Shown piece after piece: positions 11,715 to 18,766 of a stretch of DNA of 64,000 nucleotides. Under the pieces are notes generated by a model, which was not told where the DNA came from, did not search any database, and was given only the letters and a program-made list of their open reading frames with translations. The DNA is taken from sequence record PX104380.1; one strand, written 5' to 3'. This stretch comes from a phage. A program made the translations under genes and the position numbers. Position 1 is the stretch's first letter, and each line of letters begins with the position of its first letter.

Positions 11715-12893
11715 TTAAAAATATTTTTTAAAACTCATCATAACTTTATCATCAACATCATTATCAATCTGTGCAACAAGATAAGATGACAGTTCTACTT
11801 CTTGCGGCGCGGATTGAACATTATCAGAATTAAGGTATTCACGAATCCAAGGATATGGATGTTTAACCGGAGCATCGGTAATTGGACATGGAAGACCGCA
11901 CTGTTTCATACGAGATACAGTTAAGTAATCAATAAAGCTCCACATGCTATTTGTATTTAATCCAGGAACATCGCCATCTTTAAATAAATGAACTGCCCAA
12001 TCTTTTTCTTGGCGGTTAACTTCCATGAAAATATCAACTGCTTCTTGTTCACACTCTTGAGCAATTTTAACCCATTCATCACCATCAGTGCCAAGCTGAA
12101 GTTGACGAATAATATATTGAGTGCCTTTAAGGTGAAGTTGTTCATCACGTGCAATGAACTTCATAATCTTGGCATTACCTTCCATGATTTCCATGTTCTT
12201 ATGGAAGTTAAAGGTACATGCGAAAGATACATAAAAACGAATAGCTTCAAGGGCATTAATAACATGCAGACACAGATAAAGCGACTTCATTAGCTCACGC
12301 TTCCAATATGTCTCATGCTCAATAGCATCTTCAATAACGTCTTCGTCTGCATTAATTTCTTTTTGGTATTCGATATCAGCTTTAGCGTTTTCCCAATAAC
12401 GAGTTTTAATCAGAACGTCATCATAATAACGTCCAATGGATTCAGCGCGTTTCATAATAGCTTCATCTAATACAATCTCATCAAATACCTTTGACGGATC
12501 AGTATAAAGATTTCGCATAATATGAGTGTATGAACGACTGTGAATAGTTTCACTAAAAGTCCATGTAGCAACCCATGTATCAAGACTTGGGTCTGAAATT
12601 AATGACATAAGTACAGCAGATGGCGCACGACCCTGAATGCTATCCAAAAGTGATTGATACTTCAGGTTGTTAGTAAAAATATTTTGCTGGTACTGAGGAA
12701 GCTTATTAAACTGTGCAGCATCCATCATTAAGTTTACTTCTTCAGGACGCCAAAAAAATGATAAAGATTTCTCAATAAGTTCTTCAAATACTCTATGTCG
12801 TTGAATATCATATCGAGCTAAACCCAATCCAGAACCAAAAAACATCGGCTCAGTCAAAATATTAACAGGGGATGTATTAAAAACTGTACTCAT
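11715..12893 (-). CDS. nrdB: ribonucleotide reductase small subunit, 392 aa, uninterrupted
   Basis: Full-length contiguous ORF with RNR R2-like features; position between denA and mobE. Confidence 0.9.
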   Translation of the reverse strand: MSTVFNTSPVNILTEPMFFGSGLGLARYDIQRHRVFEELIEKSLSFFWRPEEVNLMMDAAQFNKLPQYQQNIFTNNLKYQSLLDSIQGRAPSAVLMSLISDPSLDTWVATWTFSETIHSRSYTHIMRNLYTDPSKVFDEIVLDEAIMKRAESIGRYYDDVLIKTRYWENAKADIEYQKEINADEDVIEDAIEHETYWKRELMKSLYLCLHVINALEAIRFYVSFACTFNFHKNMEIMEGNAKIMKFIARDEQLHLKGTQYIIRQLQLGTDGDEWVKIAQECEQEAVDIFMEVNRQEKDWAVHLFKDGDVPGLNTNSMWSFIDYLTVSRMKQCGLPCPITDAPVKHPYPWIREYLNSDNVQSAPQEVELSSYLVAQIDNDVDDKVMMSFKKYF

Positions 12894-13531
12894 TTAGAAT
12901 CCTTAAATTTACATTTATCATAATGCCATCTTAAAGCATTGCCTTTATTAACTTTCTTGCCACAATGCGGACAAGGCGGATACTCTGTACCTTGCTTAGT
13001 TCTCAAAGAAATCAAATCACGGGTTTCTTTAGTATGAGGAACATCTCTTGTCGGAGAAATTGTACCATACATCGGATTAAGCACGCCGACTTTAGCAGCA
13101 GCTATATTCTTTTTAGCTTCTTCGGTTTTAGGTTTTCTCATGCGAGCTAAATGCTCTTTGGTAAATTTCCTTCCTTTAAGAGCTCTACTTATCTTTTCTC
13201 TGGTTTCCATAGAAACTTCACGTCCTATAGCAGCTTCAGATAAACGTCGTCTACCTAATTCGTACAGTTGAGAAGAAATTTTATATGAGCGATTTTTACC
13301 AGTCAAGCACATTAAACCAAAAGCTTTCTTTAATCCTGGGGTGTCATATATTTTACATAAAAGCCAATGAGCTATAAAATGCTCTCTACCTGTTAATTCA
13401 ACTAAATTTTCTTTATCATCAGAACCTCCCATGCATTTAGGGACTATATGATGTGTCTCTTTATATTCGGATAAAGGTTCCCGAGCCTGAGCTCGGGAAA
13501 TTAGGTCATTATAGATTTTTTGATAATTCAT
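12890..13531 (-). CDS. mobE: HNH homing-endonuclease-like protein, 213 aa, between nrdA and nrdB
   Basis: HNH motif ETHHIVPKCMGGSDDKENLVELTGREHFIAHWLL; position matches recalled T4 mobE. Confidence 0.7.
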   Translation of the reverse strand: MNYQKIYNDLISRAQAREPLSEYKETHHIVPKCMGGSDDKENLVELTGREHFIAHWLLCKIYDTPGLKKAFGLMCLTGKNRSYKISSQLYELGRRRLSEAAIGREVSMETREKISRALKGRKFTKEHLARMRKPKTEEAKKNIAAAKVGVLNPMYGTISPTRDVPHTKETRDLISLRTKQGTEYPPCPHCGKKVNKGNALRWHYDKCKFKDSK

Positions 13532-15795: not shown

Positions 15796-16112
15796 AAGTC
15801 CTCAACTTGAAAATCGTCTTTAAACAATCGGTTAACTATATGAGCTATTATATCACCATGACACGGCTTTGGTTTACATGTGCATCCTAGCCTCATTCCA
15901 CGTAAAGGCTCTAAATGTGCTTTAGTTATTTCTCCGGATTTAATTCGACGTATAAAATCTTTTTTGAATAATTCAATGGCAGCCTCCCGGCTGCCAGCAT
16001 CTTTACCGACGTAATTTCCCCAAAATGTACCACGGTGAATATTAACATCAAAGTCGGATTTGTATTTATTCACTACCCGACATAGACGGCCCGCGCGGTG
16101 ATAATTCGGCAT
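15786..16112 (-). CDS. hypothetical Cys/His-containing protein, 108 aa (position of T4 nrdA.1)
   Basis: ORF track; [11 protein letters not shown] motif; ATG verified. Confidence 0.5.
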
Positions 16113-16329
16113 ATTGTTTTTCCGTTAAAACAGTAATATCGTAGTAACAGTCAGAAGAAGTTTTAACTGTGGAAATTTTATTATCAAAATACTCACGAGT
16201 CATTTTATGAGTATAATATTTTTTGCCATAAATGATAATAGGCTGATTTGGTCCTGGAACTTCCAGTTCACTTGGATTGGGAAGTTCAAAAAGAACAACA
16301 CCAGAAGTATCTTTAAATCGTAAAATCAT
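16066..16329 (-). CDS. hypothetical protein, ~87 aa (position of T4 nrdA.2)
   Basis: Track start 16341 is TTG; ATG at 16329 preceded by GAGGA; 3' end overlaps next gene by ~47 nt. Confidence 0.4.
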
Positions 16330-16352
16330 ATATCCTCGCAATTAAATTAAAA

Positions 16353-17213
16353 TTATACTGCCATTTTTCCTTTAATTGGCGGGTGAGATACATAGTCGTT
16401 AAGAACAAAATTATGCGGCTTTGCGAATTGACTCAACCAAAATACCTGCGATTCTGTATCCCATTCATCAAATTCATCTGGAAATTTTAATTGTAATTCG
16501 CATAAATCCATAGGTTCACGACGCAAAATTTCTTTACATTGTTCTACGTGATTCATATAGATATGAGTATTACCACCAGAAAATATCAAATCTCCCGGAA
16601 TAAGATTACACATCTTAGCTACAATATGAACTAACGTAGCATATGATGCAATATTAAATGGAAGACCGAGGAAAACATCTACCGAACGTTGATACCACTG
16701 AAGGTCAAGGTATCCATTACGAACATTAAATTGATAGAACATATGACAAGGTGGTAATGCCATCTGCTTGAGTTCAGCTGGATTCCATGCTGAAACAATT
16801 TGACGCCTATCATTTGGCAGTTTTTTAATACGATCAATAACTTCTATAATTTGGTCTACACCACCAAAATCACGCCACTGTTTTCCATAAATTGGACCAA
16901 GTTCACCGCTATGGTATCCTAAATCTTTTGCTTGATTTTCGTAATTTTCATCCCAAACTGTTTTGCCTTGGATTAACGAATCATGTTGAATTAATCGCAA
17001 ATCATTGACATTTGTGCTTCCCGATAAAAACCATATTAACTCAGCAATGCAAGCTTTCCAGGCGAGCTTTTTAGTTGTTACTGCAGGAAAACCTTTAGTT
17101 AAATCCCAGCGTAATTTAGTACCGAACAAAGCAATTGTTCCTGTGCCTGTTCGGTCATCGGTTTCATAACCATTTTCAAAAATGTCTTTAATTAAATCTT
17201 GGTATTGTTTCAT
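16353..17213 (-). CDS. td: thymidylate synthase, 286 aa, uninterrupted
   Basis: Contiguous 286-aa ORF with ThyA features (catalytic Cys region PPCHMFYQF). Confidence 0.95.
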   Translation of the reverse strand: MKQYQDLIKDIFENGYETDDRTGTGTIALFGTKLRWDLTKGFPAVTTKKLAWKACIAELIWFLSGSTNVNDLRLIQHDSLIQGKTVWDENYENQAKDLGYHSGELGPIYGKQWRDFGGVDQIIEVIDRIKKLPNDRRQIVSAWNPAELKQMALPPCHMFYQFNVRNGYLDLQWYQRSVDVFLGLPFNIASYATLVHIVAKMCNLIPGDLIFSGGNTHIYMNHVEQCKEILRREPMDLCELQLKFPDEFDEWDTESQVFWLSQFAKPHNFVLNDYVSHPPIKGKMAV

Positions 17214-17228
17214 TTAACACCTATATAA

Positions 17229-17576
17229 TCAATACGGTTTAGCATCAAATTTTCTCTCAATTTCAGGCGTGAAATATAATTCTTTACCGCGTTTGGAAAA
17301 GCGACCAATAATATGATAATTATTCTCATCAAACGTGATATTACCAATATCCATAGCTTTCAACCAAATATCGATATTTCTATCCAGCTTTATGTCAAAA
17401 TTCCAATACGGAGAACTATTACCGAAAATACTGCAAGCGGATTCAGTGAAACAACTGCTATAAATCTTATCTTTAGGAACTACTAATTGATAGACACCTT
17501 TAATAAACTGAGGACCCTGCCACTTTGGCTGTTTCTCGTCTTTTTCTAATAGAATAGGGTAATAATTAAAATTCAT
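17229..17576 (-). CDS. hypothetical protein, 115 aa, between frd and td
   Basis: ORF track; ATG verified; no recognised motif. Confidence 0.5.
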   Translation of the reverse strand: MNFNYYPILLEKDEKQPKWQGPQFIKGVYQLVVPKDKIYSSCFTESACSIFGNSSPYWNFDIKLDRNIDIWLKAMDIGNITFDENNYHIIGRFSKRGKELYFTPEIERKFDAKPY

Positions 17577-17595
17577 ATTTCCGCCACGCGTTATT

Positions 17596-18422
<827 letters not shown>

Positions 18423-18433
18423 ATTATCTCCTA

Positions 18434-18766
18434 TTAAAAAGGATCAGGAACATATCCGCTAGCTTTAATCATTTTAATTAACGTTAACATTCCTTTGTTA
18501 ACTGCTCGTGAGATTTCATCAAAAACTTCATCACTAAAAAGTTCTAACACGCCCTTCTGAACTTTTAATTTACAGCCAACAATTTCTTCATCGCCTATAG
18601 TAAATTCATTACCACCAATTCCACCGAAAAACTTAATTACACCAGTTAACTGTCTTCCACGAGAATATGGGTCGTGTGATAAAGTAATATGAGTCACCCC
18701 GAGTACAGTTTTAAATTGGCAGCGAATATTTACTTGTGAAATTCCAGTTACATGAATGTCAGACAT
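18434..18766 (-). CDS. hypothetical protein, 110 aa
   Basis: ORF track; ATG verified. Confidence 0.5.
   Translation of the reverse strand: MSDIHVTGISQVNIRCQFKTVLGVTHITLSHDPYSRGRQLTGVIKFFGGIGGNEFTIGDEEIVGCKLKVQKGVLELFSDEVFDEISRAVNKGMLTLIKMIKASGYVPDPF

Follow-up and report, generated by a model that had tools for sequence, protein, structure and literature searches.

Gene td.1 between frd and td of a T-even phage: probably an old resident of the locus that T4 has lost

In the T4 reference genome (NC_000866) the stop codon of frd (145109–145690) overlaps the start of td (145112) and no gene lies between them. The locus analysed here, in a window of 64,000 nucleotides of phage DNA (sequence record PX104380.1), holds a 115-codon open reading frame at this point, td.1, and raises the question of how long the frame has stood there and what its product might do. 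A preliminary description, correct on the direct adjacency of frd and td in T4, had read it as an extra ORF inserted as lineage-variable cargo. The locus comprises the following features:

18434–18766: next ORF upstream of the 81-aa ORF, a DUF7247 protein
18177–18422: 81-aa ORF upstream of frd, with no Pfam match
17596–18180, minus strand: frd, dihydrofolate reductase, upstream of td.1 (ORF call with the T4-like start)
17577–17595, minus strand: frd–td.1 spacer of 19 nt (alignment and junction listing)
17581–17585, minus strand: Shine-Dalgarno-like GGCGG, 4 nt 5' of the td.1 ATG (...gtggcggaaat/ATG; read from the sequence)
17229–17576, minus strand: td.1 coding sequence, 115 aa plus stop (ORF call, phrog_1928 match, dN/dS)
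17214–17228, minus strand: td.1–td spacer of 15 nt with the AGGTG ribosome-binding site for td at 17218–17222 (alignment)
16353–17213, minus strand: td, thymidylate synthase, intronless, 286 aa, downstream of td.1 (ORF call)

ORF calling on the window places the td.1 start at the first ATG, GTG or TTG past the upstream in-frame stop, which bears out the coordinates and ATG start first described, and GGCGG is a candidate Shine-Dalgarno-like element for it. The frame of frd reaches back to an earlier ATG at 18204 (202 aa), whereas a T4-like protein (MIKLVF...) begins at the ATG at 18180, part of an ATGA that also contains the stop codon of the 81-aa ORF before it.

The frame already has a name in GenBank, being td.1 in T2H (AY262132.2) and T6 (AY262134.2) and RB32ORF229c in RB32 (DQ904452.1), where it is annotated as "flanked by 9 bp repeat". 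The window protein is 97–99% identical to these products, of equal length and in the same position between frd and td; the window copy differs in that its td.1–td spacer is 30 nt shorter and has lost a promoter-like segment. T4 itself has no named gene at this position, whereas T2 and T6 have td.1. A tblastn search of 50,697 phage records finds td.1 in 582, with 363 at protein identity of at least 90% and many at 100%. The protein also matches phrog_1928 (E 3.1e-36, residues 4–111 on profile positions 2–125 of 126), a family that PHROG labels "unknown function" and that tandem paralogues of other genera match as well; profile match, frd–td location and conserved residues alike place it in this family. 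The absence of a recognisable motif, as first described, holds across Pfam, NCBIfam and PADLOC, none of which matches td.1; the window protein gives no Pfam match at E up to 10, and no recurrent family appears among the 23–37 members scanned individually. A literature search found no paper on td.1, RB32ORF229c, phrog_1928 or a gene between frd and td, and two Edgell-lab papers on mobile elements of T4 are silent on both td.1 and frd. Since it is named in T2H, T6 and RB32 records that give it no function, belongs to a PHROG, and has neither a known domain nor a paper, the ORF is, by homology and position, the already annotated but uncharacterised T-even gene td.1.

Pairwise Nei-Gojobori comparison of five alleles gives dN/dS of 0.01–0.16. 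Specifically, the window differs from T2H at 14 synonymous and one non-synonymous sites, from AdolfPortmann at six and none, and from a Mosigvirus copy at 30 and ten. With its presence in 582 records and its phrog_1928 match, this low ratio takes td.1 beyond a chance ORF and marks it as a real gene under selection in T-even phages. The reading of td.1 as a random open frame or a pseudogene in decay, in keeping as it might be with the missing known domain and with T4 managing without the gene, has a negligible probability, being already refuted by the selection signal and opposed by full length in 581 of the 582 records, by a confident AlphaFold2 model and by family conservation down to 22% identity with invariant residues.

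A 901-nt locus probe sorts the Tequatrovirus-like records into three span classes:

363 records (~68%): td.1 only between frd and td
135 records (~25%): a 68-aa ORF only, at identity of at least 90%
32 records (~6%): empty interval with the exact T4 junction
about 530 records: all frd-bearing records (megablast)

The three classes sum to exactly 530, a fit that owes something to chance, as a few of the records are incomplete. The td.1, orf68 and empty states clearly partition Tequatrovirus, and the gene is lineage-variable, as the preliminary description had it. The empty junction is limited to T4 and close relatives, for example RB55, RB59, vB_EcoM_112, HY03 and SG1. The 68-aa ORF belongs to phrog_9550, to which PHROG gives no function; its ATG overlaps the frd stop, its own stop overlaps the td ATG, and its identity to orf69, the gene just before td in fuller arrays, is 81%. 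The copies of orf68 and orf69 are located as follows:

L014, 814–1020, minus strand: Yersinia phage PYPS2T
L013: a further copy
L019, 4670–4879: a further copy
L004, 3173–3379: a further copy
L012, 2806–3018: a further copy

Homologues of the 68-aa ORF at 40–43% identity occur in Phapecoctavirus-type phages, and some records misname it "flagellar biosynthesis protein". In Shigella phage Shf125875 (L015, Mosigvirus), frd and td.1 are Tequatrovirus-like (93% amino-acid identity) and td is RB69-like according to its annotators, and a joint left by recombination between genera may thus lie at or close to the boundary of td.1 and td. The td intron and the td.1 allele vary separately: T4 has only the intron, T6 has both, T2H and the window have only td.1, and Paracelsus combines the intron with an orf68-type interval. 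In the window, td (16353–17213) and nrdB (11715–12893), both on the minus strand, are uninterrupted; in T4 td carries an intron with I-TevI and nrdB one with I-TevIII.

The td.1–td spacer measures 15 nt in the window versus 45 nt in most relatives. The absent 30 nt read TTAGCTTCATAAAATGTATTATAATTTATA in AdolfPortmann and hold a MotA-box-like GCTTCA together with a −10 element (TATAAT/TAATTT); this spacer carries a "promoter" annotation in the Lutter record. Among the matches listed, three phages (REP1, Ge15 and Phaginator) share the short spacer as one uninterrupted match. Because the promoter-like 30 nt are missing, td of the window phage may rely wholly on read-through transcription from upstream. 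A promoter and terminator scan yields nothing exceeding shuffled background, and Rfam on 16000–18600 gives only a chance match (E 0.4).

Beyond Tequatrovirus, other T4-like genera account for 219 distant tblastn matches (identity under 60%). Nine of these loci were inspected, in Enterobacter phage MY742 (unclassified), Edwardsiella PEi26 (Kanagawavirus), Klebsiella ValerieMcCarty04 (Jiaodavirus), Erwinia Cronus (Roskildevirus), Proteus ABTNLPp2 (Gelderlandvirus), Klebsiella F48 (Marfavirus), Citrobacter Moon (Moonvirus), Serratia CBH8 (Winklervirus) and Serratia WSPA (Muldoonvirus). All nine carry a td.1 homologue between frd and td, which in eight lies directly 3' of frd, usually overlapping its stop; Erwinia Cronus has the paralogue ahead of it. 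Overlap with the frd stop, as at loci L019, L004, L005 and L006, contrasts with the 19-nt spacer of the window. The closest relatives outside Tequatrovirus, at 63–66% identity, lie on two metagenomic T4-like contigs; the first has the order frd, td.1, paralogue, orf69, td, and MY742 shows the same full array. Within full arrays, every gene begins on or right at the end of the one before it; on the metagenomic contig, ATGA overlaps form three of the four junctions. In all 13 related loci inspected, td.1 lies in the frd–td interval, the second metagenomic contig ending just past the paralogue, and the synteny comparison proposed at the outset finds the slot occupied across T4-like genera. The tandem paralogue (about 115–145 aa; hhalign probability 99.2%, E 1e-19) is present in seven of the nine inspected loci and has an extra conserved segment, WALV..PTI..YKRNP, that td.1 lacks; a profile scan of all window ORFs finds no td.1 paralogue elsewhere in the window. 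The paralogues lie at these positions:

L004, 2817–3176: td.1 paralogue
L005, 2817–3173: td.1 paralogue
L007, 2059–2493: td.1 paralogue
L008, 2809–3156: td.1 paralogue
L009, 2790–3143: td.1 paralogue
L010, 2787–3134: td.1 paralogue
L011, 2814–3188: td.1 paralogue
L019, 4332–4673: td.1 paralogue

Across the nine loci, and for the same phage pairs, identity to the window is 22–46% for Td.1, 33–52% for Frd and 69–79% for Td, as would be expected had td.1 long been inherited together with its neighbours. The family is small and phage-only: searched exhaustively with HMMER, 1.84 billion representatives yield 52 clusters at 50% identity. Its members are stand-alone proteins of about 95–148 aa, save two weak partial matches and two short fragments; the partial matches, the long repeat proteins P0078 (visibly low-complexity) and P0081, were treated as spurious.

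Some records label members of this family "putative homing endonuclease" (MZ501046 and OR271596, among some BASEL records and one Klebsiella phage). According to this reading, td.1 would be a free-standing homing endonuclease that spreads by cutting genomes without it, a behaviour with which its presence/absence polymorphism beside td, a known mobile-element target, would agree. However, 37 members searched at E up to 10 contain no GIY-YIG, HNH, LAGLIDADG, PD-(D/E)XK or NUMOD domain, save one HNH_repeat match at E 0.097, and their alignment has no invariant acidic or His residue. Moreover, 115 aa is about half the size of the T4 Seg and Mob proteins, and Pfam recognises at once a real HNH plus NUMOD3 gene in the same window. 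In its distribution td.1 is polymorphic within Tequatrovirus, and one inter-genus frd–td.1 transfer is seen; across genera, however, pairwise divergence is at least that of Frd, and inheritance looks vertical. The T-even homing endonuclease genes mobE, segG and hef are likewise small, variable and wedged between conserved nucleotide-metabolism genes, but td.1 is half their size, lacks a nuclease or DNA-binding motif, looks vertically inherited and keeps to one slot across genera. The homing-endonuclease reading, to which we give very little probability, is effectively refuted at the sequence level, and the label is unsupported and not to be propagated. The recognised gene is a 213-aa HNH plus NUMOD3 ORF (12890–13531, minus strand) between nrdA and the intronless nrdB; at the same site T4 has mobE and nrdB.1, so the window holds a different free-standing homing endonuclease there.

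The junctions of td.1 carry a direct repeat, in two copies:

17591–17602, minus strand: left copy, TAAATGAAATAA, across the frd stop codon (direct-repeat search, family D2)
17205–17216, minus strand: right copy, TAAATGAAACAA, across the td start codon (direct-repeat search and alignment)

The two copies match at 11 of 12 positions, lie 386 nt apart and have the form TAAATGAAA[C/T]AA, in which the 9-mer core TAAATGAAA is exact. Alignment of the window, AdolfPortmann and T4 reveals that the T4 junction equals the td.1-bearing sequence minus everything between the copies. The first 23 nt of T4 td are exactly those of the td.1-type allele and differ at two positions from PYPS2T, the one orf68-type allele examined, which hints that the T4 junction came from a td.1-type parent. 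The same geometry has been open to another reading, namely that td.1 is recently acquired mobile cargo that entered a T4-like frd/td junction and duplicated a 9–12-nt target. An 11/12 repeat whose collapse restores the T4 junction exactly is what such an event would leave; the RB32 annotators recorded the repeat; in Tequatrovirus the junctions of td.1 do not overlap, a spacer and a promoter-like segment taking their place; and one Mosigvirus carries a Tequatrovirus-like frd–td.1 block. The repeat as proof of a target-site duplication was nevertheless dropped, the motif being about threefold over-represented in the genome: the 64-kb window contains 12 copies of TAAATGAAA (one at 17594–17602) against 4.0 ± 1.9 expected, and four of the longer form TAAATGAAAYAA against 0.17. 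Both resemble sequences that this genome favours where a stop meets a start, and since TAAATGAAA is common at gene junctions, the flanking repeat by itself fits deletion and insertion with target duplication equally.

The polarity rests instead on distribution across genera and across the Tequatrovirus states. The td.1 family occupies the same slot in many genera with Frd-like divergence, the closest outgroups carry the full array, and the empty junction is confined to the 32 records of T4 and near relatives; in addition, the ORF has no transposase, integrase or nuclease domain. Foreign origin by composition was also set aside, the GC content of td.1 being 0.328 against 0.355 for the whole window and its GC and GC3 resembling those of neighbouring genes. 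Recent acquisition is thus improbable. With its slot shared by many genera, its divergence at or above that of Frd and its unremarkable GC, td.1 is by these comparative signs an old resident of the frd–td slot, and T4 the reduced state. The preliminary description accordingly stands on variability and absence from T4 and fails on insertion and cargo: homologues lie between frd and td in at least nine other T4-like genera or lineages and on two metagenomic contigs. The fuller interval of some T4-like phages reads frd, td.1, td.1 paralogue, orf69, td, and on the most economical view the Tequatrovirus intervals are differential reductions of such an array, to td.1 only (the window, T2 and T6), to orf68 only, or to nothing in T4, the most reduced. 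Since the T4 junction equals the collapse of two TAAATGAAA copies, T4 most likely lost td.1 by deletion between these short junction repeats, a step that would have left frd and td intact and coupled. Identity and evolutionary history of td.1, taken together, are highly probable.

The product is about 13 kDa (GRAVY −0.59, pI 7.7, 17% aromatic) and, by its composition, is a soluble and near-neutral protein. In a 37-sequence alignment with the window protein as first row, Q16, W19, Y29, G91, F93, K95 and G97 are invariant and L9 and G27 nearly so. The same alignment contains no conserved Asp, Glu, His or Cys, which disfavours an enzyme or a metal site. Protein and HMM searches and structure prediction had been proposed as checks; the former gave phrog_1928 and nothing from Pfam or NCBIfam, and AlphaFold2 with the family alignment gave a confident model (pLDDT 81.8, pTM 0.78). 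Predicted strands span residues 8–12, 27–34, 38–40, 48–50, 62–64, 80–82, 86–96 and 99–104, with a helix at 68–77. The placing of the helix after the third and before the fourth main strand follows the order of an OB fold, and td.1 is predicted to fold into a small beta-barrel of OB-like layout, its single helix set between strands, for which the OB-fold nucleic-acid-binding domains (RPA, Stn1, Teb1, HIN and S1/cold-shock type) serve as comparison. Foldseek against the PDB finds no match below E 0.77, a profile search of PDB sequences returns noise only (E above 1), and BFVD matches to the model are exclusively uncharacterised T4-like and Aeromonas phage proteins. The conserved W, Y, F and K residues are only suggestive of a binding face.

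The predicted barrel, the invariant W, Y, F and K residues and the lack of invariant acidic or His residues together argue for a binding protein rather than an enzyme. Td.1 would bind nucleic acid or a protein partner and, made early with Frd and Td, would serve the thymidylate/dNTP module as an accessory factor that the phage can spare; this mechanism is tentative. A bolder form, in which Td.1/phrog_1928 would be an undescribed OB-like binding family dedicated to the T-even thymidylate/dNTP module, is unlikely. Under it, Td.1 might act as a tether at replication forks, linking Frd and Td to ssDNA or gp32, or might bind the frd–td mRNA and tune coupled translation, and the tandem paralogues could form a heterodimer. 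The best-surviving alternative is that Td.1 is an anti-defence or host-takeover accessory that binds and neutralises a host factor, is kept or lost according to the hosts met, and owes its place in the operon to history. Such a role, itself doubtful, is nearly as likely as the OB-like binding role. A small, dispensable early-region gene that lacks an enzymatic motif, is polymorphic in close relatives with three mutually exclusive alleles, and shows the tandem duplication and fast divergence typical of host-conflict genes would suit it. Against this, the position of td.1 is fixed across distant genera, whereas counter-defence genes tend toward hyperplastic regions and move; purifying selection in Tequatrovirus is very strong, with no diversifying selection seen; and the protein matches no described family, which leaves nothing positive in favour. 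As an overall account, a resident td.1, its loss from T4 and a predicted binding accessory protein form the best explanation, held with moderate confidence.

The T4 gene 32–frd–td–nrdA region contains comparable genes, namely frd.1 (DUF5417), frd.2, frd.3, nrdA.1 (DUF4326) and nrdA.2, which like td.1 are short early-region ORFs without known function. They are syntenic across T4-like phages and often start/stop-overlapped with their neighbours. They differ from td.1 in being present in T4 and having Pfam entries; td.1 is not in T4 and has no Pfam family.

The finding is modest on its own, as hundreds of T-even genomes already carry an annotation of td.1. At the frd–td junction, the T4 reference is the exception, and reading other T-even genomes against it makes an old gene resemble an insertion. 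The interval appears as an array of zero to three genes trimmed at short junction repeats, with frd and td intact in the three Tequatrovirus states examined. With td.1, the T-even phages have an uncharacterised family that is conserved and under selection, and T4 supplies its natural null; if the family were indeed dedicated to the thymidylate/dNTP module, this natural knockout would explain why td.1 is absent from the classic T4 literature.
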